This document shows, in pieces, positions 937 to 38,314 of a stretch of 48,913 nucleotides of DNA (positions are counted from its first letter, which is position 1; each line of letters begins with the position of its first letter). A program made the position numbers and the translations under genes. The stretch is taken from positions 1 through 48,913 of the forward strand of contig CAIJUJ010000029.1 in assembly GCA_903823865.1 (NCBI GenBank), given 5' to 3'. This DNA is from an uncultured bacterium. GTDB lineage: Bacteria > Patescibacteriota > Minisyncoccia > Phycocordibacterales > GWA1-40-21. The notes below the pieces were generated by a model. That model searched no databases, had not been told where the DNA came from, and was given only the letters and a program-made list of their open reading frames with translations.

Positions 937-2289
937 TTATTTTCCTTTTCTTGAAATTAATGTTCTTAAAGTTTTTAGTCCGATTTGTAAATCAAGCATT
1001 AATGATTTATTTTTTAAATAATATAAATCATATGAAAGTTTGGTTTTTGTGTCTGTAAAATTTACACCGCCTTTTGGTGGATTATCCTGACAAATCTGCG
1101 CCCATCCAGAAAGACCGGGCTTAATAATGTGTCTAATACTATAATACGGTATTTCCTTCTCATATATGGCCACAAATAAAGGCAGTTCTGGCCTTGGACC
1201 AACAAGAGATAAATCTCCCTTGATAACATTCCACGCCTGTGGAAGTTCATCAAGACGAGTTTTTCTCAAAAATTTACCGACAGTTGTAAGTCTATTTTTC
1301 TTTTTCAATTCTTCATCTCCTTCATCATCAAAAAACATGGTTAAAAATTTATAAATTTGTACAACTTTTCCACCCTCACCAATTCGTTTTTGTGAAATTA
1401 AAACTTTTGTATTTTTTGTATTTAGCATAATAGCAATAGAAATTATAGGAAAAAGTGGAATTAAAATAATTAAAATAATTAGTGATGTCAAGATATCAAA
1501 AAATCTTTTTAAATATATATACGCGAAATCTTGTCTCAAGGAAATGTTTTCCAAAAACCAATCATATTGCAAAAAAGATAGCGGGACTCTATCAAAAACA
1601 TTTTCATAAACCTTATCCATATCTATAAATTTTACACCAGCAAAAATCTGGTTGTATAAAATAGGCAAAATTGGCTCTATTCTTTTGTCTTTTAAATCAA
1701 TAACCACCACTGATATAGAATCTGATTTTATTTTTTCAATTATTTTTTGCACATATGAAGTCCCCTCTTCTTTGTCTAAATCAATGTCTAATCCAAATTT
1801 TAATTCGGACCTTGGATTTCCATTTATTTCTTTTAAAACATTCTTCATCTCTTCACCACTACCTATGATTATTGCTGGCTCCTTTTCTTTTAAACCAAGA
1901 ACAGAATGTATATAAAATCTCCAAGCATAAAATAAAATAAAAGTGATTATCAAATTTAAAAACAAAATCGTCTTTGGTGTAATGCCAAAATACGGAATTA
2001 AGTAAAAAAATATGACCGCAATAGCACTGTTTACTAATTGTGCGTTAAATATTATTGAAGACATGCTATCTTTCAAAATTGTCCTGTATTTATCATAAAG
2101 ACCAGCAATAAAAAAAATAATGAGCCAAGCAATAAAAATAAACATGAAAGGCACAATGTGTACCTTGAAATTTGACCAAAGGGAAACACTGTTATCTCTT
2201 AAAGCAAGAGAAATCCAAAGCGACAAAATAAATATTAACAAATCTCCAAGAAGTAAGAAAAAGGTTTCTTTTCTGCTTGATATTATCAT
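937..2289 (-). CDS. Polyprenyl-phosphate glycosylphosphotransferase (WcaJ/WbaP-like sugar transferase)
   Basis: N-terminal TM helices; C-terminal motifs KRFFDI, IYKFLTM, LRKTRLDELPQ, LVGPRPE, KPGLSGWAQ and DLYY. Confidence 0.9.
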   Translation of the reverse strand: MIISSRKETFFLLLGDLLIFILSLWISLALRDNSVSLWSNFKVHIVPFMFIFIAWLIIFFIAGLYDKYRTILKDSMSSIIFNAQLVNSAIAVIFFYLIPYFGITPKTILFLNLIITFILFYAWRFYIHSVLGLKEKEPAIIIGSGEEMKNVLKEINGNPRSELKFGLDIDLDKEEGTSYVQKIIEKIKSDSISVVVIDLKDKRIEPILPILYNQIFAGVKFIDMDKVYENVFDRVPLSFLQYDWFLENISLRQDFAYIYLKRFFDILTSLIILIILIPLFPIISIAIMLNTKNTKVLISQKRIGEGGKVVQIYKFLTMFFDDEGDEELKKKNRLTTVGKFLRKTRLDELPQAWNVIKGDLSLVGPRPELPLFVAIYEKEIPYYSIRHIIKPGLSGWAQICQDNPPKGGVNFTDTKTKLSYDLYYLKNKSLMLDLQIGLKTLRTLISRKGK

Positions 2290-2402
2290 AGTAGACCATA
2301 TATTAGCACTTTTACAAAAAAATGAAACCTTTAAATTTGGGCATAGTTTTTTTCCAAATAAGCCAATACGTCTCTTTCATTTAAGCTATTTTTATATATA
2401 AT

Positions 2403-3560
2403 ATGACTACAATGTATTTTGCAAAAAAGAAGCTTTTTATATGTATCACAAAATCAAATTGGGGGGGTGCTCAAAAATATGTTTTTGATATTGCAACAAA
2501 TACACCGAGAGACCAGTTTGATACGACCGTACTTTTAGGTGGAACCGGAGACTTAAAGAATAAGCTTGAAGAGTTTGGAGTAAAAATTTTATTACTAAAA
2601 AATTCACAGAGAGACATCAACGCGAAAAAGGAGTTTTACTTATTATTTGAACTAATAAAATTATTTAGAAAAGAAAAACCTGACATTATACACTTGAACA
2701 GTTCAAAAATGGGGTTAGTTGGTGCACTTGCAGCTAGAATCGCTGGAATAAAAAAAATAATCTTTACGGCACATGGCTGGGCTTTCAATGAAGATAGAAA
2801 TTTTATTTCAAAATGTTTTTTTAGAATACTACATATATTTACAATTATTCTTTGCCATGAAGTAATTTCTGTTTCTGAAATAACAAAATTACAAATTGGT
2901 AAAATGTTTGGTAAAAAGATTACCATAATAAGAAACGGATTGAGAAATATTGAATTGTTAGATAAAAACCATTCAAGAGAGTTTTTGCGTAATAAAATCT
3001 TGGAAAAGAATAGAAAAATAAGTAATGTTTTAGCGAAAAATCCATCGTGGATTGGTACAATTTCGGAATTGCATTCAAATAAAGGTCTAACATATGCAAT
3101 AGAAGCAATCTCAAAAACTCAATTAAATGTTATATTTATTGTTATTGGTGATGGTGAAAAAAGGCAACAGCTCGAAGAACTAATTATCAAACTTGGGTTA
3201 AAAAATCGAGTTTGTTTACTTGGCAAAATAGCTGAGGCTTCTATTTATTTAAATGCTTTTGATATCTTTACACTAACTTCTATAACTGAAGCCCTGCCTT
3301 ATGTATTACTTGAAGCTGGATTTGCCTCATTGCCTACTATCGCGAGCGACGTGGGAGGTATTCCGGAAATTATTGATGATGAAAAAACAGGCCTTTTGGT
3401 TTCACCAAGAAATTCGGAGGAAATTAAACACTCAATTGAATATTTGATAAATAATCCATCAAAATTAAGCTCATTTGGGAACGCATTACATTCAGTAATA
3501 ACAGAAAACTTTACTCAAAAAAGAATGTTGGAGGAAACTTTTTATTTGTATAGAAAATGA
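2403..3560 (+). CDS. Glycosyltransferase family 4 (GT-B)
   Basis: GGAQKYV, HLNSSK, TAHGW, KGLTYAIEA and EALPYVLLEA (EX7E) motifs. Confidence 0.9.
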   Translation: MTTMYFAKKKLFICITKSNWGGAQKYVFDIATNTPRDQFDTTVLLGGTGDLKNKLEEFGVKILLLKNSQRDINAKKEFYLLFELIKLFRKEKPDIIHLNSSKMGLVGALAARIAGIKKIIFTAHGWAFNEDRNFISKCFFRILHIFTIILCHEVISVSEITKLQIGKMFGKKITIIRNGLRNIELLDKNHSREFLRNKILEKNRKISNVLAKNPSWIGTISELHSNKGLTYAIEAISKTQLNVIFIVIGDGEKRQQLEELIIKLGLKNRVCLLGKIAEASIYLNAFDIFTLTSITEALPYVLLEAGFASLPTIASDVGGIPEIIDDEKTGLLVSPRNSEEIKHSIEYLINNPSKLSSFGNALHSVITENFTQKRMLEETFYLYRK

Positions 3561-3616
3561 TATAATTATTGTATAGTAATATTTTATTAATTTGTATTAT
3601 CTAAGAAATTTAAAAA

Positions 3617-3763
3617 ATGTATATGGATAATAATTTAGTTACAGGATTAGCTGGTTGGTTAATTAAAATAGGTCTAGCGAAAGATGAACATTGTGCAAAT
3701 GTTATTATGATAATATTCATAATAATAGGATTTGCCTACACAATATACTCGTTATTTAAATAA
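3617..3763 (+). CDS. Small putative membrane protein (48 aa; not in the ORF track)
   Basis: Hand translation MYMDNNLVTGLAGWLIKIGLAKDEHCANVIMIIFIIIGFAYTIYSLFK*; C-terminal hydrophobic helix; fills the gap between converging genes. Confidence 0.55.
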   Translation: MYMDNNLVTGLAGWLIKIGLAKDEHCANVIMIIFIIIGFAYTIYSLFK

Positions 3764-3764
3764 C

Positions 3765-4964
3765 CTAGAGCCCTAAAAATTCATTTCTTACAAGATCTTT
3801 GTGAGCGTCTCTTCTATATCTACGCATTCCCATCAATATCCCTAGACCAACAAATGATGATAGTAGGTTTGTCCCGCCGTAACTCATAAACGGAAAAGTG
3901 ATTCCTGTTACAGGCATTAGTCCTAGTGCCATTCCGGCATTAACCAAAAAATGACTCATAAATAATATTGCCAACCCTAAACCAAAAAGTATTTCAAAAT
4001 TCGTTGCCCCATAATATGCATTCGTAACAATTCTCCAAATTAAAATACCAAAAACCAAAAAGAGTATAGCTACACCAACTAGACCCCATTCCTCAGCAAA
4101 AGTTGAAAATATAAAGTCTGATCTATATTCTGGTAAGAATTTTAATTTTGATTGAGTACCATAACCGATTCCCTTTCCTAGAATTTGTCCGGAACCGATT
4201 GCTATTGTTGATTGATATGCATTATATCCAGAGCCTCTAATGTCAGAAAGTGGGTGTAAAAAATTTATAACCCTACTTTTTTGATAATCTTTCAAGCCAT
4301 AAACCCATAAGATTGAAAATGCGGTTGCGCCAATAAGAAACACAGCGAAAAGATGTTTTTTTGAAATTCCTGATACAAGAGTCATTCCAAACCATATTAA
4401 AAATATAATTAATGCGGAACCAAAATCTGGCTGAAAATATACTAGTACAAAGATGGAAAGGGCATAAAATCCAGAAACCAAAATATGCCTAATATTTGCA
4501 ATTTCAACGTGTCTTTTTGAAAAATATTTTGCAAGCAAAATGACAAGGACTAATTTAATCGGGTCAGATGGTTGAAATGATAATCCCCCTATTTGAAACC
4601 AGCTTTCCGCGCCCTTTGCAGTATGTCCCAGCACAAATAAAACAAACAAAAGTCCAAGAGAAATAAAAAATATTGTAGTAACCACTTTTGTTTTATTTAA
4701 AAATCTATAATCAAAAAGACTTAAGATAAAAAAAACAATTACGGAAATAATAAGCCAAATGACTTGCTTTTTTACAAAAGTATCATCGCTTACATAAGAG
4801 GCCATTGTTAAAAGTCCTAAAATCGCAATGACAATAACAGAGGAAAACATTATCCAATCAATTTTTAGACTAGAAAATATAGACAGTATACCCTCTCTAT
4901 TCTTGTGTTGAGAATCAGACAACATGCGTTTAGTTTGGTAAAACCCCGTAGTAGATTTTGACAT
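3765..4964 (-). CDS. rodA: SEDS peptidoglycan glycosyltransferase RodA/FtsW
   Basis: Multi-TM protein with GAESWFQIGGLSFQPSD, GYNAYQS..AIGSG, LPEYRSDFIFS, P(V)TGITFPFMSYGG. RodA versus FtsW is not fully resolved. Confidence 0.8.
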   Translation of the reverse strand: MSKSTTGFYQTKRMLSDSQHKNREGILSIFSSLKIDWIMFSSVIVIAILGLLTMASYVSDDTFVKKQVIWLIISVIVFFILSLFDYRFLNKTKVVTTIFFISLGLLFVLFVLGHTAKGAESWFQIGGLSFQPSDPIKLVLVILLAKYFSKRHVEIANIRHILVSGFYALSIFVLVYFQPDFGSALIIFLIWFGMTLVSGISKKHLFAVFLIGATAFSILWVYGLKDYQKSRVINFLHPLSDIRGSGYNAYQSTIAIGSGQILGKGIGYGTQSKLKFLPEYRSDFIFSTFAEEWGLVGVAILFLVFGILIWRIVTNAYYGATNFEILFGLGLAILFMSHFLVNAGMALGLMPVTGITFPFMSYGGTNLLSSFVGLGILMGMRRYRRDAHKDLVRNEFLGL

Positions 4965-5061
4965 TAAAAATGTTTTTTTGTTTCTTATAAATCATTTGGG
5001 GTTTATTTAATATATTAATTTTTTAAATCATAGTAATTTGACACATTTTTAAAAAACAATG

Positions 5062-5835
5062 TCAAAATTCACTACCGGGTAAAACTTTTGAGACAATATC
5101 TACTCTTACAATTTTTCCTGGAAATGGCTCTGGCCATGTAAACACGATATCAGCTGTACCGTCTGCATCTATCGAGTCGATTTTTGTTTTTGAAAAAGCG
5201 ATAGCATTGCCATTTATATCATAGAGAATGGCAACTTCTTCTATATTTGAAATTGGATTAAGTGTAGAGTTTCTCATTGTTACAAACAGTTTTGGTTTCG
5301 TGTCTTCGTTAGTCAAGTTTTTCGATACAGCAGTAATATTTGATTCTTGATTTTCAATTTTTTGCCAAACTGGATTTCCAATAAATTTAAACTCTGTCCT
5401 TGCTGGGACTTTATCATTCAAACTAATATTGTCTTCGAAAATAACAAAATTATTATTTGGCGGAAGGTATGTGGTACCAGTTTTTTGATAAAGCAAAATA
5501 TTATTTTTATCATAAACTTTAAAATTATACTGGGCATTGTAAGCCCCAACTCCAATATTTGGATTCTGTATATAAGTCAAAAAATTATACATTCCACTAC
5601 TCAAAACCTTTGACCATCGCGGTCCCCAAATAACAACTGGGTCACTAAATTGTGCACGACACAAATTTACACATGGCCCACCGCAATCAATTCCAAATTC
5701 GCCTTGATTTTGTACGCCATCACTACAACTTGGTGCTTTATTAAATGTAGTAAATAAAATTATTGCCAGTATGATAACAAAAATAAATAATATTGAAACT
5801 ATATAGGTTGTTTTTCTTCTTTGTGCCCAAGACAT
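5062..5835 (-). CDS. Membrane-anchored hypothetical protein with Cys-rich motif and beta-rich body
   Basis: N-terminal TM helix, then CSDGVQNQGEFGIDCGGPCVNLC. Confidence 0.75.
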   Translation of the reverse strand: MSWAQRRKTTYIVSILFIFVIILAIILFTTFNKAPSCSDGVQNQGEFGIDCGGPCVNLCRAQFSDPVVIWGPRWSKVLSSGMYNFLTYIQNPNIGVGAYNAQYNFKVYDKNNILLYQKTGTTYLPPNNNFVIFEDNISLNDKVPARTEFKFIGNPVWQKIENQESNITAVSKNLTNEDTKPKLFVTMRNSTLNPISNIEEVAILYDINGNAIAFSKTKIDSIDADGTADIVFTWPEPFPGKIVRVDIVSKVLPGSEF

Positions 5836-5875
5836 GTTTTTGTTTAAGATTAATTTTAACTGCTTTTATTATAAC

Positions 5876-5897
5876 AAAAAACTGCCAAATTGGCAGT
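5876..5897 (-). terminator. Probable intrinsic terminator of the 23S-5S transcript
   Basis: ACTGCCAA/TTGGCAGT hairpin followed by a T-tract on the minus strand. Confidence 0.65.
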
Positions 5898-5909
5898 GTT
5901 TGTAAATTA

Positions 5910-6070
5910 AAAACTTAGTTCGGTATTTACTTTCCCCAACAGAGGGAGTTGGAGTTTGGGTTGGGACCAAAACTTCAAAGACAGACTGAGCGAAGGCGAA
6001 GGAGTCGGGGTCGCGAGATTTTTCAGCAGAAAAATACTCGTGACTCATCGCCTAAACGGTATCAAATTTA
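5910..6070 (-). pseudogene. Degenerate 5S rRNA 3'-half relic interrupted by inserted hairpin DNA
   Basis: Minus strand ACTCCCTCTGTTGGGGAAAGTA matches the intact 5S ACTCTCTCTGAAGGGGAAAGTA. GGCGATGA (6045-6052) matches GCCGATGA, about 100 bp away. Confidence 0.55.
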
Positions 6071-6090
6071 ATTTGGGGTGGGACCCAAAT
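5948..6090 (+). repeat. Two partial copies of the mini-element terminal hairpin
   Basis: GTTTGGG-TTGGGA-CCAAAAC (5954-5973) and ATTTGGG-GTGGGA-CCCAAAT (6071-6090). Confidence 0.65.
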
Positions 6091-6196
6091 TTAATTTCTT
6101 ACATAACAAAAAAATACTCGTGAGAGCGTTTTTAGTATTAAAAACTTAGTTCCGGCGCCTAGCTACTTTCCATTTAAGTTGAGAGTAATTCATCCC

Positions 6197-6292
6197 CTTA
6201 CAGGGGCAGTACACCTTTTGGATATTTTATTTCTTTTCAATCATAAAATATCTCAAAAGGTCTTTCGGTCGGGTCCCAATCCCGACCTCAAC
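6197..6292 (-). mobile_element. 96-bp hairpin mini-element, copy A
   Basis: Aligns by eye with 38169-38264 and 6504-6584: GTTGA, stem with TTGGGA loop, ACCTT...AAGGT stem, TACTG, CTGTAAG. Mobility is inferred. Confidence 0.65.
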
Positions 6293-6334
6293 CTCAACGG
6301 GCTTAAATTTAAAAATAATTTTAATCAAAAACTT

Positions 6335-6449
6335 TGTTCTGGCGACTACCTACTTTCCCCTTCAGAGAGAGTATCATCGGCACTACAAGGCTTAACTTCT
6401 GAGTTCGGAATGAGATCAGGTGTGACCCCTGCGTCAAATCACCAGAACA
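6335..6449 (-). rRNA. rrf: 5S rRNA (intact copy)
   Basis: TCTGGTG...CACCTGATCTCATTCCGAACTCAGAAGTTAAGC...GCCGATGATAC...GAAAGTAGGTAGTCGCCAGA. Flanked by a perfect 16-bp IR (6311-6326/6458-6473). Ends approximate. Confidence 0.95.
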
Positions 6450-6503
6450 AAAACTTCGATTAAAATTATTTTTTGAATGAACTTCTGATTCGGAATGAAT
6501 CAG

Positions 6504-6584
6504 GTGAGATTTGGGCTGGGACCCAAATCGCAAGACCTTGAACATCTTGTTCTCGTGATGTGAAAGGTGTACAGCGTCTGTAAG
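6504..6584 (+). mobile_element. 81-bp hairpin mini-element, copy B
   Basis: ATTTGGG-CTGGGA-CCCAAAT, ACCTT..AAGGT, GTACAG, CTGTAAG. Confidence 0.6.
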
Positions 6585-7003
6585 AAGGAACACCCAAGAC
6601 TTTGCACCAGAACTAAATTTTCAATTTTATCATGTGAAAAATATTCAAAATATTTTTTGAATTAATTTCACATAACAGGTTAAAACAAACGATTTGTGTA
6701 TTTTTAAATTTCCTAATAAGAATCGGATAATTAGTATTGCTCGCCTGAATCGATTACTCGACTTACAGCTGCAACCTATCACCTGGTCATCTCCCAGGGT
6801 CCTCAATTGAATTCTAATCTTGGGGACGGCTTCACTCTTAGATGCTTTCAGAGTTTATCCGTTCCGAACATAGCTACTCTGCGTTGCCCTTGGCAGGAAC
6901 AGCAGATAGACCAGAGGTTCGTTCAACTCGGTCCTCTCGTACTAGAGTCAAATCCCCTCAAAATTCTACGCCTGCAGTAGATAGGAGACCAACCTGTCTC
7001 ACG

Positions 7004-7364
7004 CATGTTATCACTCATTACTAAGTGCATTGGACTATAGCTTCATTAAATCAGTATATGGTATGTAGTATACAGTATACTGTATACAAAATACTTAATA
7101 CTCACTCAACTGTTGGTGTTTAGTCTCTACGGGCATATATAATAAATTATATATTTCCCTCGGTATAATCCACTTTCATGGAGTCCACCGATACTAACCA
7201 ACTTGATCGTAATATTTTTTAAATATTAGACCGCCGTGATTTGATTGTGTCTTCTTTCTATTTATACTCAATAACAAAATTACTCACCTTGTTCATTGAG
7301 TTTGTTTAAACGAAAATTCCTCATGGGATTCAAACTATTAAAAAGATAATTCGTTATCTTCTTA
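7004..7364 (-). ncRNA. Group I intron in 23S (361 nt, no homing endonuclease ORF), inserted after U2593 (E. coli numbering by eye)
   Basis: Interrupts GGGTTCAAACCGT|CGTGAGACAG; ends in G; P7 strands GTAGAGACTA and AAGCTATAGTCC; P3-like AACTCAA/TTGAGT. Confidence 0.85.
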
Positions 7365-8021
7365 ACGGTTTGAACCCAGCTCGCGTATCTTTTTAAATGG
7401 CGAACAGCCATACCCTTGGGAGCTTCTCCACCCCCAGGATAAGATGAGCCGACATCGAGGTGCCGAACTCCGCCGTCGATATGAACTCTTAGGCGGAACT
7501 AGCCTGTTATCCCTAGAGTAGCTTTTGTCAGATAATCCCGGGCCGCGTCTAAAACGGGCCGTCGGTTCACTTTGCTCTGCTTTCGCATCTGCTCGACACT
7601 TACGTCTCGCAGTTAAGCCGGCTTTTGCCAATATGCTATCGGCACGGTTTCCATTCGCGCCTAGCCGACCTTAATAGGCTCCTCCGTTACTTTTTAGGAG
7701 GATAGCGCCCCACTAAAACTACCCACCAGATACTGTTTCTATGAGTTTTTTCCTCAAAGATTAGAATATATATTCAAAAAGAACGGTATTTCACTTGCGG
7801 ATCCATCTTCCCCGAAAGAAAAACTTCAAATCCTCCCGTCTACGCTACGCATCCAAAACATATACTCAATACCAAGTTGCAGTAAAGCTTCTAGGGTCTT
7901 TTCGTCTAACTGCAGGTAACCGGCATCTTCACCGGTATTGCATTTTCACCGAGCTGATCTTCGAGACAGTCCCCCACTCATTACACTATTCAAGCGCGTC
8001 TGAACTTACCAGACAAGGAAC

Positions 8022-8062
<41 letters not shown>

Positions 8063-9409
8063 CAGGGCTTACAGCAATCACCACTACCCTTGCGGATAGC
8101 AACGTCGCTGGTTGACCTTCTGGCATTGGTCAAGTGTCACCTCCTATACATCGTCTTACGACTTCGCAGGAAGCTGTGTTTTTGATAAACAGTTGGCAGA
8201 GGTACTTTTGATGCTACCCATATAAATATGGGCAAGCCTTATTGCTAACTTACGGCTGATATTTTGCCGAGTTCCTTGAAGATCTATCACTCGTTCACCT
8301 TACTCTACTCGAGCTAACCACCTGTGTCGGATTACGGTACGGTCTTTACATATTTAAGTTTAGGGAATTTTCTCGGAAGTTTGCTTTGATAAATTCACCA
8401 CGGCGAACCGTAATGTTTATGCTGCACTTTCGCTCATCATTAAAGAAAGAATTCCGGATTTACCTGGAACTCGCAATTATGCTACAAACGCAAATCCATT
8501 AATGCGCTTATCATACTAATCTTCGTCCTCCCATCACAATATATAAAGGTCATGGAATATTAACCATGTGTCCATCGTGTGCGGCTATCGCCATCCACTT
8601 AGGGCCGACTAACCCTTCGCTGATTGTCATCGCGAAGGAAACCTTGGTTTTTCGGTGTGTGGGGTTCTCACCCACATTGTGGTTACTTGTGCCAACATTC
8701 TTACTTCAACACGCTCCACCATGGGTCACCCCTTTGGCTTCATTGCAGAGTTGAATACTCTCCTACCAATATAAATATCCGAAGATATCTATAGTCCTAA
8801 GTTTCGGTATCATGTTTAACCCCGATTATCTGCGGCGCAAAATCTCTTAGTAAGTGAGCTGTTACGCTATCTTTAAAGGATGGCTGCCTCTAAGCCAACC
8901 TCCTTACTGTCTGAGAAAAATTACCACCTTAAGTGTACTTAACATGAATTTAGGGACCTTAAATTTAGATGCGGGCTGTTTCCCTTTTGACCATGGGGCT
9001 TAGCCTCCACAGTCTAACTGCTGAACAATTTACTTCTCGGTATTCGGAGTTTGATAGGTCCTGCGATATTTCTATCTGTCAGGACCTTCCAGTGCTCTAC
9101 CCCCGGAAGGTACATTCAACGCTAGCCCAAAAGCTATTTCGGAGAGAACCAGCTATTACCAGGCTCGATTAGCTTTTCACTTCTTATCTCAAGTCATCCA
9201 AGACTATTGCACGGGTCACTGGTTCGGACCTCCCCTCTGATTTCTCAAAGGTTCATCCTGCTCAAGATAAGCTCGCTCTGGCTTCGGGTCTGATCTGTAA
9301 AATAAACGCACTATTAATACTCGGTTTCCCTATGGCTCCACCCGGTAAAGGGCTTAGCCTACTTCACAGATCAACTCGTTGGCTCATTCTTCAATAGGCA
9401 CGCCGTGAC

Positions 9410-9550
9410 GGACATCACACTACAAACGATATTTACAAAATAAAAATTAAAAAATATATAGCAAAAATTACCGCATCAAAATGACACTAGTATTTTTGGT
9501 TTTAGAGTTTTTAATTTCAACTTGCAAACATCACATGCAATGTGATGCCC
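9410..9550 (-). other. Expanded 23S helix 25 / intervening sequence (141 nt)
   Basis: Replaces the ~28-nt helix between ACGCCGTGAC and GCTCCGACTC. AT-rich and folds as one long imperfect hairpin. Confidence 0.75.
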
Positions 9551-9608
9551 GCTCCGACTCCTTGTAGGCGCACGGTTTCAGGTCTATTTCACTGCCCTCA
9601 CCGGGCTG

Positions 9609-9645
<37 letters not shown>

Positions 9646-10239
9646 ATCTCTAACAATATTTAGCCTTACCGGTTAGTTCCGGCAGATTCCCTCAAGCTTT
9701 TCGTGTCCTGAGGTACTCAAGAATAATAACGGAAAAGATATTTTATTTTCACTTACGGGACTATTACCCACTAGGGTTCTGCTTCCCAGCAGATTCTGTT
9801 AACAAAATATTTTGTAACTTTTCTCATTTATAAATAAATGACGTCACCATCTTACTACACCGATCATAAACTTTATGTACAAAAATTTTATACACAAAGT
9901 TTATGATCGGTTTGGGCTACTTCCTTTTCGCTCGCCGCTACTAGGGAAATGTTGTTACTTACGTAACATTGTTTTCTGTTCCTCCAGGTACTGAAATGTT
10001 TTACTTCCCTGGGTGTGCATCTTACATCAAGTGCAAGATAACCAACAAAGTTGGTTGAGTTTCCTCATTCGGAAATCTCCGGATCAAAGGTTGCTAAGCA
10101 CCTCCCCGAAGCTTATCGCAGCTTTACTACGTCCTTCATCGCTTATTAGAGTCAAGGCATCCACCATGCGCCCTTAAATTTCCCATTAGGAAATTTAAAA
10201 ACCACAATCTTTAATTAGTTTACATCGTAAACTAATAAA

Positions 10240-10257
10240 TTTGTTTTAACCTGTTAT
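10240..10257 (-). promoter_or_regulatory. 5' arm of the 23S processing stem (pairs with 6672-6689)
   Basis: Perfect 18-bp IR TTTGTTTTAACCTGTTAT/ATAACAGGTTAAAACAAA bracketing the 23S. Confidence 0.8.
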
Positions 10258-10501
10258 ATGGAATCAATTCCTTATAACAGTCTTATCAAAATTAATTGAT
10301 AAAATTATTTTAAATCATATCATCTCTCTCCAAGAAAAATGATTGATTCACCTGCCTGCCTATAATACCTATAAAAGACCCAATCCACTTCGCGTGGAAA
10401 ATTGGTGGTACTATGACAGAATAAAGATTTAAATTTAAATAATCATCAAGAGATAATCACTGAAATCTTAATCTTATTTTTCAAGTTTCAATCTTTCTGT
10501 G

Positions 10502-10524
10502 AAAAAAACCGCTTACTGCGGTTT
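10502..10524 (-). terminator. Terminator-like hairpin inside the 23S upstream region
   Basis: Minus strand AAACCGC-AGTAA-GCGGTTT followed by further Ts. Confidence 0.55.
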
Positions 10525-10603
10525 GTAGTGCCAACATTAAAAATGCCGACTATACTTTCCGCTGTAATAATTGGTTTTTTATAAACATATCTGTGTAAGA
10601 ACG

Positions 10604-10632
10604 AGTATATAGGAAAGGGTATGTAAAGTCAA
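10604..10632 (-). promoter_or_regulatory. Sigma70-type promoter upstream of 23S
   Basis: TTGACT-17 bp-TATACT. Confidence 0.75.
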
Positions 10633-10730
10633 GGAATTTTTGAGGAAAAATCTAAATCATTGTAAAACCAAAAAAGACCAGCAAAATGATAGTCTTTTTC
10701 GTATTTTTTGGGCTTATAATTTTAGATAAA

Positions 10731-11327
10731 TTATTCAAGAATTCCATCTAAATTTACATCATACAAAATAGCTTCTTGAATATGCTTATATTTTATTATC
10801 TCATCTTTTTTAAACCACAAATCAATTTCCTTATGAGCTTCATCCACACTTCCAGATGCGTGTATTAAATTTCTAATTGATCTCTCGTCTTGGTCAGACA
10901 TTCTGTATGAATCTAAAACAAAATCACCTCGTATCGTACCGGTATCAGAAGAAAGTGGTTCAGTGCCACCAACAAGTTTTCTAACAATTTGTATTGCGTG
11001 TGCTCCCTGCCAAACCATAGTAATGACTGGCCCGCTTGAAAGGTATTTTTCTAGCCTCAATAAAACCTTATTTCCTATTTCTAGTGGGTCGTCAGATGGT
11101 GGAACAAACCCTTTTGATTTATAATTATCAATAGATTTTTGCCCAGCTTTTCTTACCCACTCAGGGTCAATAGTGTAATGTTTCCTTGCCATCTCCGGAT
11201 TTGGAAGACACATTCTCATTGCAATGAGCTTTAGGCCAATTCTTTCGAATCTTCCTATTATTTCTCCAATAAGTGACCTTTGTACACCGTCTGGTTTTAT
11301 GATGATAAATGTTTTTTCTGTTTTCAT
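10731..11327 (-). CDS. ndk: Nucleoside diphosphate kinase (long form)
   Basis: EKTFIIIKPDGVQRSLIGEII, PGTIRGDF-like TGTIRGDF, and RNLIHASGS with the catalytic His. Confidence 0.95.
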   Translation of the reverse strand: MKTEKTFIIIKPDGVQRSLIGEIIGRFERIGLKLIAMRMCLPNPEMARKHYTIDPEWVRKAGQKSIDNYKSKGFVPPSDDPLEIGNKVLLRLEKYLSSGPVITMVWQGAHAIQIVRKLVGGTEPLSSDTGTIRGDFVLDSYRMSDQDERSIRNLIHASGSVDEAHKEIDLWFKKDEIIKYKHIQEAILYDVNLDGILE

Positions 11328-11350: not shown

Positions 11351-14128
11351 TTATTCAATCTCCGGTTCAGTCTTTTTATACTTTTCTAAAATCTCATTTT
11401 CAACCTCACCCTTATCGCGACCGTACTTAAGATAAGATAATTCTTTAATTTTATCAAGTAGAATTTTATTTCCTCTTGGTGGTAAGTTTGTTTCCATACT
11501 AAATGGCTTTACAGGCTTTCCATTTGCAAGCATTTTTACATACGAACTGTGATTGTCTATATTCATTAAATCTTTTGCCGAAAATACTGGAGTAAATTGT
11601 TTTTCTAAATATTCTGCGTCTTCAGAGCTTACACGAAATACTGACATAGAACCAACGTTACCAAAAACAGAATTCTTTATTTTTTCATCAAGCTGTGCGA
11701 TAAATTGGTGCGCCACAGTAAGCGCAAGTTTATATTTTCTTGCTTCTGATAGTATTGTAGAGATAGAATCAGTTGTGACATTTTGAAATTCATCAACATA
11801 TAAATAGAAAGGTGGAAAATCTTTTCCAAAAGAATCCGTTCTTGAAAGTGCTGCCATTAATAATTTGCCTACAATAATAAGACCGATAAGATTTGAGTTG
11901 ATGTCTCCAAGCCTTCCTTTTGCAAGGTTCACTAGAAGTATTTTTTTATTATCCATAATGTCACGAAAATCAAAAGATGATTTTTCTTGAGAAACAATTG
12001 GACGCATAATTTCATTTGAAAGAAACACGTCAAACTTTGAGGTAATATATGGCACTATATTTGCAAGAGATGCTTCACCTCCAGCTTTTCCAGCAATTTC
12101 TCTCCAGAATTGTAGAACAATTGGGTTTTTACACCTTGAAAGTTTAAGCTCTCGGTATATTTTATCTGATAGAACTCTTGATACATCCAGAAGAGTTGAA
12201 CCAGAATCTGGATCTTCCAGGACAAGATTTACAGCATTTCTAAAATATTGTTCAAACATAGGACCACCCGTTGCTTTCATATCAAAAAGTTTATTGAAAA
12301 TTGAAAGCATTTCATTAACTACAAATGTTTTTTGTTCTGGGAATCTTGTATCAAACTCGAGCATGTTTAATCCCATTGGTCTTTCTGTATAGCTTGGATC
12401 AAAATAAATTACATCATCATATCTTTCTGGAGGAACAAAAGACAGGACTTCCTGAATATCAGAACCGTGTGGGTCTATCATACAAACTCCCTCTCCTGCC
12501 AAAATATCTTGGCGAATCATTGTTTTTAAAAGTGTGGTTTTACCTGTACCGGTTTGACCTATAACATAAAAATGCCTTAGCCTATCTTCCGGTGTTATTT
12601 TTATTGGTGTTTCCACGTTTCTATATTTATTTGTTCCCAAAAGTATTCCTTCTTTGGGTAGATCGAGTGGTGCTGGTGCGCTAATCGCTTCGGTCTTTTT
12701 TAGTTGTGATGCACTATTAAAGTCCGCCTCAGGTAAATGCATGATTGTTGTTAATTCTTTCAAGTTTGTATTCAATACTTTATTTTCATTAAAAATCCTA
12801 AAAGAATAATCTCGGGCTAATTTCAAGAGATTTTTACCTTCAGCCCTTTCAAATTTTATTTTATTACCATTTGTATTTTCAAATTGGTTAAATGAAGACT
12901 CAATATCGGACAAGATAGCAAAAGCTTCTTCACTTGCTGTAGATGAAGCCATAATTCTAATATTTACACTTGCAATTGGACTTGAAATTTTAGCTTTAAT
13001 ATTTTCGATTGGGGTAGTATTAGAAGAGCTGTTGTCTTCTTTCTTATCATCCTTATCTTTTTTTGTTTCTTTTATTATTTCTTTTCCAATCTGCCTCAAA
13101 ATACCAAAGATTGAAGAATCAGCTTTTGCTAACGCCTCTTTAAATTTTGAACCCTTTTCCATTTCTTTTAATACCTTTTTGTAAAAAGACATTTTTGCGG
13201 CAGGGGCAGGTCTAACAATTATTTGTATTGATGCTCCCTCTCCATCTTTATCAACTTTTGAGAAACTGTTTAGTAGTACATTCAATGGGTCATAGTCAAA
13301 TTGGTCATAAGTTTTTATTGGAAAAATATCATTTTTTGAAAACACGGCTAACGAACCTACGTATTCACCATTTTCATTAAAAATATTATAATCATTTTTC
13401 TTTTCTACAAGTTTTACATTTGGAAAAATAGACTGAACTTGTTTTTCAAAAAGTGAGCGTTTCGAATCTGGAATTGATATATAAAAAATTATTTCATCAC
13501 TATGATTAGCTTTTGAAAGTTCGAGCGCAAAATAACCTGAGCCCTTTTTATCATCCTTGTCTACAGAAAACATCCCAGCATAAAATTGCTCCATTTTTGA
13601 TATTAGTTCTTTTAAATTTTTATTTTTCTGAGCCTCATCTTTTATTGCGCCAGGCAAAGATACCTCGAATAGGGTCATCTTCAAAGCTTTAAAAACTGGG
13701 TTTTTTTCATTAGTGTTAGCGAGTCTAAAACCCGCTTTTATGTATTGAACTAAAAATCTATGAAAGTCATCTTCAATATGCGGATTATTTAGTCTGTCAA
13801 TAATCGCTAGAGTATTCAATACTCCTTTTTCTTGTAAAATATCAATAAGTTCGGCCATTTTGGCATCATGCTCTTCTGGTGCCAAGTCAAGAACGATGGC
13901 CTCAACTTCATTCTTTTTCAAAGCATAATCTTTATCTAAAATATCTTCTAGTTTTTTATCGGCATGGGCATGAATTTCATCATGAATGACTTCATCTTGT
14001 ATAACATCTTTGCCATCCTCAGCCATTTGTCTCTCGTGGTTTGAGACTTTTTCACGTAAATATCTCAACTCCTCATCAGGAGTTTTAAATTTTTGTTCTA
14101 TTCTTTGACTACCAAATTGTTCAACCAT
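11351..14128 (-). CDS. VirD4/TraG/HerA-like P-loop ATPase
   Basis: HFYVIGQTGTGKT (Walker A), IDPHG, LYVDEFQ (Walker B), LSEARKY and AHQFIAQL. Confidence 0.8.
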   Translation of the reverse strand: MVEQFGSQRIEQKFKTPDEELRYLREKVSNHERQMAEDGKDVIQDEVIHDEIHAHADKKLEDILDKDYALKKNEVEAIVLDLAPEEHDAKMAELIDILQEKGVLNTLAIIDRLNNPHIEDDFHRFLVQYIKAGFRLANTNEKNPVFKALKMTLFEVSLPGAIKDEAQKNKNLKELISKMEQFYAGMFSVDKDDKKGSGYFALELSKANHSDEIIFYISIPDSKRSLFEKQVQSIFPNVKLVEKKNDYNIFNENGEYVGSLAVFSKNDIFPIKTYDQFDYDPLNVLLNSFSKVDKDGEGASIQIIVRPAPAAKMSFYKKVLKEMEKGSKFKEALAKADSSIFGILRQIGKEIIKETKKDKDDKKEDNSSSNTTPIENIKAKISSPIASVNIRIMASSTASEEAFAILSDIESSFNQFENTNGNKIKFERAEGKNLLKLARDYSFRIFNENKVLNTNLKELTTIMHLPEADFNSASQLKKTEAISAPAPLDLPKEGILLGTNKYRNVETPIKITPEDRLRHFYVIGQTGTGKTTLLKTMIRQDILAGEGVCMIDPHGSDIQEVLSFVPPERYDDVIYFDPSYTERPMGLNMLEFDTRFPEQKTFVVNEMLSIFNKLFDMKATGGPMFEQYFRNAVNLVLEDPDSGSTLLDVSRVLSDKIYRELKLSRCKNPIVLQFWREIAGKAGGEASLANIVPYITSKFDVFLSNEIMRPIVSQEKSSFDFRDIMDNKKILLVNLAKGRLGDINSNLIGLIIVGKLLMAALSRTDSFGKDFPPFYLYVDEFQNVTTDSISTILSEARKYKLALTVAHQFIAQLDEKIKNSVFGNVGSMSVFRVSSEDAEYLEKQFTPVFSAKDLMNIDNHSSYVKMLANGKPVKPFSMETNLPPRGNKILLDKIKELSYLKYGRDKGEVENEILEKYKKTEPEIE

Positions 14129-38153: not shown

Positions 38154-38314
38154 GTCGTTCCCGCGAAAGTTGAAATTTGGGTTGGGACCCAAATGAAAAA
38201 CCTTTTCAGAATTTTTGTGAAGGAGACGAAACAAAAAATCGAAAAGGTTTACTGTTCCTGTAAGGCGGGAATCTAGAACTCACAAACATGGATCCCCGTC
38301 TTCACGGGGATTAC
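38154..38314. repeat. Second REP doublet; its first REP is split by the mini-element
   Basis: GTCGTTCCCGCGAAA|insert|GCGGGAATCTAG ... ATGGATCCCCGTCTTCACGGGGATTAC. Confidence 0.75.
38169..38264 (+). mobile_element. 96-bp hairpin mini-element, copy C
   Basis: GTTGAA-ATTTGGG-TTGGGA-CCCAAAT-GAAAA-ACCTTTTC...GAAAAGGT-TTACTG-TTC-CTGTAAG. Confidence 0.7.

Follow-up and report, generated by a model that had tools for sequence, protein, structure and literature searches.

How does one 5S rRNA gene come to lie inside another, and which of the two does the cell use? This question is raised by a 48,913-nucleotide (nt) contig (CAIJUJ010000029.1, assembly GCA_903823865.1) of an uncultured Patescibacteriota bacterium, hereafter the window, in which the 5S locus is on the minus strand, as are the features described below. 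A first-pass annotation had proposed that an intact 5S sits within a second, expanded 5S-like sequence. It had offered two origins: an older 5S disabled by insertions and rescued by a newly inserted precursor-like 5S, or a single precursor that is processed to release the inner 5S. Here we compared the locus with other assemblies and with the loci of relatives (labelled L001–L048). Our results suggest that the 480-nt unit is probably an ancestral 5S gene turned into a pseudogene shell around a working, co-transcribed inner 5S, which would be released at a long stem.

An intact inner 5S gene enclosed by a long stem

The inner gene (6337–6446) is 110 nt long, in agreement with the 105–110 nt typical of Parcubacterial 5S rRNAs (PMC9297842), and starts 263 nt past the end of the 23S rRNA gene. 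It covered positions 1–120 of the Rfam model RF00001 with 75.8 bits (gathering score, 38 bits) and scored 129 bits with a model of the clade. Helices I, II, III and IV/V can all be formed (32/32 pairs), and loop C has its conserved CCGAAC. No promoter for the inner gene was found within the shell on the minus strand upstream of 6446, and no group I or group II intron family was among the Rfam matches at E ≤ 10 in 5700–6750.

The inner gene is enclosed by a 35-nt inverted repeat (I1; 6311–6345 and 6439–6473, 86% complementary). The 5′ arm of the resulting stem occupies 6447–6480 and the 3′ arm 6307–6336, and the predicted duplex has 35 bp (−40.5 kcal/mol, z −9.7). A closing repeat had thus been correctly noticed before, but the 16 bp given for it fell well short of its length. 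The boundaries of the insert in the outer copy coincide with the ends of this long stem, so the inserted unit, about 174 nt at GAAGTT^AAGC, is a foldback of stem, 5S and stem. In the other nested loci described below, the cassette stems are 42–46 bp long (z −9.4 to −14 over all nested loci), and their distal arms vary in sequence between loci yet remain paired.

Ordinary 5S genes of the clade likewise have a leader and a trailer that always lengthen helix I, to about 25 bp. We measured covariation of this stem on 22 distinct loci, using 500 shuffles and pairing partners slid by 1–3 columns as controls. Helix I with its extension was 94% paired, and 15 of its 25 pairs had changes on both sides. 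None of the shuffles reached the observed values, and the slid partners were 34–51% paired with 2–5 double-change pairs. We conclude that the leader/trailer extension of helix I is a covarying rRNA precursor stem. The compensatory change that had been reported between the outer and inner helix I (TTAG/CTAA versus TTTG/CAAA) is real, but it is not specific to the window: the pair concerned varies throughout the clade (UA in 11, AU in 9 and GC in 2 of the 22 loci).

The inner 5S departs from the nearly fixed clade-type sequence at 13 of 110 positions (12%), and no closer match to it was found among the sequences compared. At the cassette junction, TT or TTA could be taken for a target-site duplication in some loci but not in L034; we regard this reading as uninformative, since all junctions may stem from one event. 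As a separate observation, the distal cassette stem resembles the hairpin that follows the 23S gene (85% over 27 AT-rich nt) in the window and L008, and not in L014 or L044.

The outer sequence is a degraded full-length 5S homolog

The outer 5S-derived sequence spans 6621–6141 (about 480 nt) in four pieces around three inserts. The first piece (6589–6621), recognized by inverted repeat, profile and pairs, consists of the leader strand of an extended helix I (6621–6612) and 5S positions 1–23 (6611–6589), which hold the 5′ strand of helix I, loop A and the 5′ strand of helix II. The second (6481–6506) is the helix III/loop C hairpin CACCTGATTCATTCCGAATCAGAAGT, 2 nt shorter than in a real 5S and matching positions 25–51 of the clade model. 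The third (6292–6306), TTAAGCCCGTTGAGG, corresponds by profile and pairs to loop B and the 3′ strand of helix II (5S positions 52–67), and carries the clade-type GTTGAGG and not the GTAGTG of the inner copy. The fourth (6141–6196) comprises helices V/IV, in which loop D is degenerate, together with the 3′ strand of helix I (to 6150) and the trailer strand of the extended helix (6149–6141); it is 81% identical to the 3′ end of the inner gene (direct repeat D1). As had been claimed, the outer ends AAAATTTAGTTCTGGTG (6621–6605) and CGCCGGAACTAAGTTTT (6157–6141) pair at 17 of 17 positions with 3 G-U pairs; scored as an inverted repeat (I7), the pairing extends over 22 nt at 82%. The other landmarks of the first-pass annotation were all recovered on the minus strand to within 1 nt: the loop C piece ends at 6481 rather than 6480, TTAAGCCC lies at 6306–6299, and GATG..GGAAAGTAG covers 6194–6163, where 6162 had been given.

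We scored the outer copy after splicing its four pieces (112 nt), using an nhmmer profile of the relatives' 5S and counts of canonical pairs. Infernal in local mode is unable to bridge three large inserts. The spliced sequence scored 55.8 bits (E 2.7e-17) over profile positions 1–110, and the best of 200 shuffles scored −0.4. It forms 24 of the 32 canonical 5S pairs, compared with 31–32 in intact genes and 12 ± 2.7 (maximum 20) in shuffles. We conclude that the outer sequence, as had been proposed, is a true full-length 5S homolog; it passes the check set for it beforehand, namely that the insert-free sequence should outscore shuffled controls. It is also degraded: loop C lacks 2 nt and has CCGAA-T in place of CCGAAC, loops A and D are changed, and eight pairs are lost. 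Over all nested loci, the outer copies have lost 6–11 of the 32 pairs. In the unspliced DNA (5700–6750), a scan with RF00001 gave no second 5S at E ≤ 10, and the covariance model of the clade gave only marginal, local matches to loop C (9.6 bits, E 0.048) and to the 3′ part (6.7 bits, E 0.24). Annotation pipelines report the inner gene only, because covariance models barely see the unspliced outer copy.

The outer copy, by its diagnostic bases (GTTGAGG and GTAGCTAGGCGCCGGAA), is of the clade type. In L003, whose neighbouring protein is 93% identical to that of the window, an intact 110-nt 5S has a leader and a trailer like those of the window's outer copy. The two loci are collinear on both sides of L003's 5S, up to 6589 and from 6207 in the window, with 381 nt between these points in the window and 32 nt in L003. 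Thus the first outer piece follows L003 as far as its 5S position 23, and the fourth follows the 3′ part of its 5S and the trailer. These results indicate that the outer copy is the resident gene, a positional ortholog of the ordinary 5S of L003.

The nested locus recurs in independent assemblies and in relatives

An independent assembly from a different sample (L001) is 100% identical to the window over 5836–6720. Three further assemblies show the same 4.9-kb spacing from ndk to the neighbouring gene of a 257-amino-acid (aa) protein, and that protein is recorded in 79 sample blocks. These results indicate that the locus is not a misassembly. We considered the identity to L001 as a sign of selection and dropped this idea: 157 of 157 differences lie in 11.5–12.4 kb, so here the two are the same strain. 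Those differences all fall within about 0.9 kb (11500–12421) of a gene for a 925-aa DUF8128/DUF87 ATPase, the other 11.5 kb being identical; this part of the gene appears to be a hypervariable or recombined segment.

We gathered relatives through the gene of the 257-aa protein and dropped L038, L040 and L045, where the rRNA synteny is gone. In L040, a diversity-generating retroelement (714–2961, with bAvd and reverse transcriptase genes) replaces the rRNA synteny beside the 257-aa protein gene. The order 23S, 5S, 257-aa protein is kept in 18 species-level relatives, recorded as Paceibacterota, Taylorbacteria and similar. The comparison of the spacer between 23S and 5S, which had been suggested as a check, bore out the nested arrangement: it recurs in five other species-level relatives. 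In each of these (L008, L014, L034, L042, L044), an intact 5S is inserted in an outer 5S at GAAGTT^AAGC, 5S position 53/54. Positions 1–902 of L008 are collinear with 7045–6139 of the window at 89%, although the neighbouring gene is just 71% identical. The shell is less complete elsewhere: L014 has lost the outer 5′ half together with the insert called B below, and L042 and L044 lack B in the shell. A scan of metagenomes for the variant loop C hairpin gave seven matches, L034 being the sole relevant one and the remainder being without a 5S.

Distant relatives have a plain layout, with about 75–100 nt before the 5S and 50–90 nt after it. In the window's clade, both 5S spacers are swollen and filled with 5S fragments. 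No shell is present in L003, L005, L011, L012, L015, L018 or L021–L023. Three of these (L003, L005, L011) have an intact 5S followed by a remnant of the 3′ part, and another group has a tandem arrangement of an intact 5S, a terminator and a pseudogene with B (L006, L007, L013, tentatively L010, and L016 from sequence). On a tree of the neighbouring protein, the nested, tandem and 3′-remnant states are interspersed; the nested loci on the tree are the window, L008 and L014, with L034, L042 and L044 being nested and off the tree.

Segments of the pseudogenes are often identical to the working copy, over 86 nt in L006 and at the outer ends in L008 and L044, which points to gene conversion between 5S copies. 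Derived bases common to the outer copies of the window and L042 suggest that the shell is old. A nested locus would become a 5S with a 3′ remnant through recombination between its nested direct repeats.

Small repeats interrupt the outer copy

The two inserts other than the cassette proved to be related to each other, a kinship absent from the first-pass account. Insert B (6507–6588; nhmmer 68.2 bits, E 1.4e-19) is a repeat of about 100 nt in forward orientation at the 5S sequence GTT^ACACC, between loop B and helix III. Insert A (6197–6291; nhmmer plus-strand match at 6193–6291, 77.3 bits, E 2.2e-22) is a copy in reverse orientation at GAGG^CGATGA. A third copy (38170–38270, 78.9 bits) is flanked by rpsF and an M16 peptidase gene. 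B, the reverse complement of A, and 38170–38270 form one family (nhmmer E 1e-19 to 1e-27), with a core in the order CCGCCTTACAGG..GTACACCTTTT, a variable hairpin, AAAGGTCTT, and a hairpin with the loop GGGTCCCANCCC. The complementarity of B and A (I3, I4) arises because one repeat sits in two orientations, and is not an evolved helix. The same holds for the rod into which the whole unit of about 500 nt is predicted to fold (−186.8 kcal/mol, z −11.2). Read from the order of the segments, the B:A helices enclose the 3′ strand of helix II but not its 5′ strand.

The gap upstream of rpsF is 237 nt long with the repeat in the window, versus 49, 124 and 37 nt without it in L046–L048. Since three relatives have the gap without the repeat, the repeat there is inserted DNA and not a conserved leader. 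A leader RNA of rpsF was thus ruled out for it; the repeat also lies upstream of a conserved promoter-like site. The extra block in this gap is about 185 nt long and also contains a CCCCGTGAAGACGGGG hairpin.

A second family, called C-type, had 11 copies in the 395 kb examined; the B/A-type family had three in the window and 13 in the approximately 330 kb examined. The positions of both vary between relatives. L042 and L044 have an A-type copy at a different site of the outer 5S than the window, a C-type copy lies inside an A copy in L013, and at locus 2 of L042 a C-type copy occupies the 53/54 site of a second pseudogene. On their size, copy number, occurrence in both orientations, nesting and one empty-site comparison, we regard the repeats A, B and C as similar to miniature inverted-repeat transposable elements (MITEs). 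L006 has a different insert of about 130 nt (5217–5345) in the 5S leader, right after the conserved TTGAAAATTTA, with inverted termini TGGAGCGT ... ACGCTCCA; this may be another small mobile element.

A third 5S remnant and the transcription unit

Downstream of the unit lies a third 5S remnant (6063–5918, 5S positions about 54–110), which the first-pass annotation had not listed. It is split by a C-type repeat, insert C (5950–6044; nhmmer 85.6 bits, E 5.7e-25), at GATGA^ACTC. Its first part (6045–6063), GATACCGTTTAGGCGATGA, covers 5S positions of about 54–73 and is orthologous to L003 5170–5184 and L007 620–638. Its second part (5906–5949), ACTCCCTCTGTTGGGGAAAGTAAATACCGAAC, is followed by the trailer TAAGTTTTTAAT and was recognized by direct repeats (D2, D5, D6) and a local match of 3.6 bits to the clade model. 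The remnant as a whole is orthologous to remnants in L003, L005, L007 and L011. A short C-type-like element (6064–6124, with the CTCACGAGTATTTTT ... GGGTCCCACCCC hairpin), which has a homologous stretch in L005, abuts it at 5S position of about 54. The remnant may be a relic of an earlier round of recombination at the locus.

The 23S rRNA gene (6710–10190; RF02541, 2240 bits, model positions 1–2925) ends 89 nt upstream of the outer 5S unit. The spacer between them contains a hairpin (6632–6673, inverted repeat I15) that is kept in all close relatives with compensating changes. The rRNA unit ends in an intrinsic-terminator-like hairpin with a T run (5872–5897), found by a terminator scan and conserved in relatives. 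On the minus strand, no terminator was found between the 23S gene and 5897, the only strong one being at 5897–5881.

Several observations concern the surroundings of the 5S locus. The 23S gene is 3481 nt long against a model of 2925 positions and hence has several insertions. In L014, an insertion of about 1.2 kb with a LAGLIDADG-type reading frame (LAYIAGFLDGDGSIMLQ) lies near the 3′ end of the 23S gene (3195–4650); because of it, the Rfam match, which ends at 3195, stops short of the true 23S end, and about 125 nt actually separate the 23S from the 5S. In L013, a tRNA match (RF00005, 55.9 bits, 4694–4766) falls within the 23S span (1363–5262), presumably in an insertion. The 23S genes of the more distant relatives L020 (221–420) and L021 (737–932) have group I introns (RF00028, 64.5 and 57.8 bits). 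No 16S rRNA gene was found anywhere in the 48.9-kb window, and ndk lies directly upstream of the 23S gene on the same strand (region 6710–11327); the 16S gene thus seems unlinked. The membrane-anchored 257-aa protein adjoining the 5S locus (5062–5835) has no Pfam family and is conserved with fixed synteny (5S, this gene, an ftsW-like gene) in more than 200 Paceibacteria-type sequences.

Explanations for the nested arrangement

In the reading that we favor, three insertions would have split an ancestral 5S into four pieces, namely the MITE-like repeats B and A in opposite orientations and the foldback cassette of about 174 nt. The inner gene would be the cell's working 5S. One transcript is expected, because no terminator separates the 23S gene from the unit; transcription would run from the 23S gene through the outer 5′ piece, B, the hairpin, the cassette, A and the outer 3′ piece to 5897–5881. 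The inner 5S would then be excised by a double-strand cut in the long stem, most likely by RNase III, and trimmed. CPR bacteria (candidate phyla radiation) keep RNase III (rnc), RNase J (rnj) and PNPase (pnp) (PMC12641178). The pieces of the shell and the downstream remnant would be discarded as a by-product. The locus would be old and unstable, with gene conversion, recombination between direct repeats and insertion of repeats producing the nested, tandem and remnant versions seen in relatives. The earlier proposal that insertions disabled an older 5S, which then holds a precursor-like 5S, fits the flanks of L003, the clade-type outer copy, the polymorphism of the repeats and the covarying inner stem. 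The other proposal, a single transcript processed to release the inner 5S, would be compatible with it. The rescue may even have preceded the disabling insertions, as insertion of the cassette alone would disable the outer copy.

Several findings sit uneasily with the favored reading. Parts of the shell appear to be under constraint: the 26-nt variant loop C hairpin (6506–6481) is invariant in the window, L008, L014 and L034, with adjoining stems that are unalignable, and in the shell of L042 another hairpin is present, two pairs of which are swapped in a compensating way. Between the window and L008, insert B is conserved at 93% identity, compared with 88% for the inner 5S and 69% for insert A. 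The repeats have no terminal inverted repeats or target duplications readable at the junctions examined, and no transposase was found for them in the sequences examined. The inner 5S itself diverges from an otherwise nearly fixed clade type. Finally, nesting has been retained in six lineages, although the direct repeats should delete it. The hairpins, insert B and the persistence of nesting leave some room, albeit not much, for the idea that nesting is maintained and is not debris, either as a mobile, self-replacing 5S cassette or as a scaffold, shaped like a 5S, on which the inner 5S matures.

In the scaffold version, the shell, or at least B, the variant hairpin and the outer helix I, would aid the folding, protection or processing of the pre-5S, and might recruit 5S-binding proteins or supply additional double-stranded cleavage sites. 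The invariant hairpin and its compensated alternative in L042, the conservation of B, the persistence of nesting in six lineages, the rod-like fold, and the outer helix I with its extension, which still pairs over 17–22 bp, would all be explained by such a design. We nevertheless consider it unlikely. The close relatives listed above live without a shell, L014 does so without the outer 5′ half and B, and L042 and L044 have no B in the shell and A elsewhere; moreover, B and A pair trivially, being copies of one repeat in opposite orientations, and the outer copies have lost 6–11 of 32 pairs. The mobile version, in which a stem-closed 5S foldback element targets GAAGTT^AAGC and brings a replacement 5S with it, strikes us as rather improbable. 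It would account for insert boundaries at the ends of a 35–46-bp inverted repeat, for an inner 5S that is 12% off the clade type within a shell that matches it, for the interspersed states on the neighbour-protein tree, and for the lack of an insert in the closest relative, L003. The 53/54 site is also used by a C-type repeat in locus 2 of L042, and in the third remnant of the window it adjoins an element. Against this, one junction is common to all six loci and the stems are mostly homologous, so that one ancient insertion and later recombination are enough. Outside 5S loci, no further cassette was found in the sequences examined. A clear target duplication and a transposase are likewise lacking, and the stem arms covary as RNA stems do, unlike transposase-binding ends.

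That the unit is a single working, very large 5S, an intact 480-nt RNA with three expansion segments of which one is 5S-like by chance, seems highly improbable. Expanded prokaryotic 5S rRNAs with segments of 13–109 nt exist (PMC7812874), and the outer ends do pair. However, the outer core is degraded, with a shortened loop C and 8 of 32 pairs lost; the B:A pairing would form a knot with the outer helix II; the inserts total about 350 nt, far past known cases; the unit contains a canonical 5S that has a precursor stem of its own; and at the corresponding place the closest relative has an ordinary 5S of 110 nt. The "expanded 5S" of the first-pass annotation, taken as a working 5S, is therefore not supported. 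There is a negligible chance that the locus is an artefact in which 5S-related reads of different strains were misjoined. Repeated 5S segments can confuse short-read assemblers, and the contig L002 breaks off within the unit, at window position 6171, but the sequence is identical in an assembly from another sample, three more have the same spacing, and versions of the architecture with diverged sequences occur in five other species, including on contigs of 550 kb and 606 kb. A pseudogene shell around a working inner 5S remains the explanation that we prefer.

Relation to known systems and significance

Remnants of 5S genes with insertions have been described at the ends of rRNA operons in Peptococcaceae and Pseudoalteromonas, where they are often preceded by a terminator and where homologous recombination with the normal gene has been proposed (PMC7812874). 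The outer copy and the third remnant of the window resemble them in being 5S-derived, with parts missing or altered and with inserted segments, beside a normal 5S at the operon end. The fit is close for the third remnant and for the second copies in L006, L007, L013 and L016. With regard to a position downstream of the normal 5S and after a terminator, the third remnant fits loosely, whereas the outer copy, which surrounds the normal 5S, does not, and the host here is a member of the CPR. Because sequences "with internal duplication" were discarded in that study, it would have missed nested cases. No earlier report of a nested bacterial 5S was found in the literature searched. The nesting of a working 5S inside a remnant is therefore what is new here, 5S remnants with insertions at operon ends being already known.

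Expanded 5S rRNAs of bacteria and archaea, such as that of Halococcus morrhuae with its 108-nt insertion (PMC7530397, PMC7812874), share with this locus insertions in loops of the 5S fold, possible extended helices and coexisting normal copies. They have an intact core, ribosomal function and segments of 13–109 nt, whereas here the core is degraded and the inserts of about 350 nt include one whole 5S gene. The outer copy, in which the conserved core is not intact, is thus highly unlikely to be a functional expanded 5S in the sense of Stepanov and Fox. In a survey of 645 CPR 5S genes, none was reported to have an insertion of at least 100 bp (PMC11270868, 2024). The interrupted rRNA genes of that survey come from the same kind of organisms with a single operon, and the 23S genes of the window and its relatives have insertions too. 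Insertions in CPR rRNA are thought to be removed from a functional gene, whereas here the interrupted copy appears to have been replaced and not repaired.

Bacterial MITEs and similar repetitive extragenic palindromic (REP)-like repeats are small, non-coding and rich in hairpins. The repeats described here resemble them in their length of about 100 nt, their presence in both orientations, their insertion into one another and their variable presence between relatives; they differ in that no terminal inverted repeats, target duplications or parent insertion sequence were identified and in that 23 of the 24 copies (13 B/A-type and 11 C-type) are in 5S-derived DNA. Integrative elements in tRNA and transfer-messenger RNA (tmRNA) genes carry a replacement gene segment, limited to the 3′ part, together with an integrase and kilobases of cargo. 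There, as here, an insertion in an essential RNA gene is tolerated through a restored copy, and fragments of the displaced gene remain. Unlike such elements, the cassette is about 174 nt long and non-coding, carries a whole gene and has no known recombinase.

That standard annotation sees the inner gene only is probably why the survey of 645 CPR genes reported no insertions in 5S. The analysis also revealed two small repeat families that accumulate in 5S-derived DNA, and the nested, tandem and remnant states of the relatives form a natural series in which gene conversion and deletion mediated by repeats can be studied in minimal genomes. Maturation of rRNA is essentially unstudied in these organisms, and the long covarying stems predict the sites at which their 5S is cut. 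The value of the locus would rise sharply if RNA showed use of the shell or if genomes showed movement of the cassette. A functional or mobile shell or cassette would be a new kind of RNA-gene element, and a mobile cassette in particular would be an insertion that repairs the essential gene that it breaks, in a genome with a single operon. As CPR bacteria have one rRNA operon, a broken 5S should be lethal, and this locus shows one way in which such a break is tolerated.

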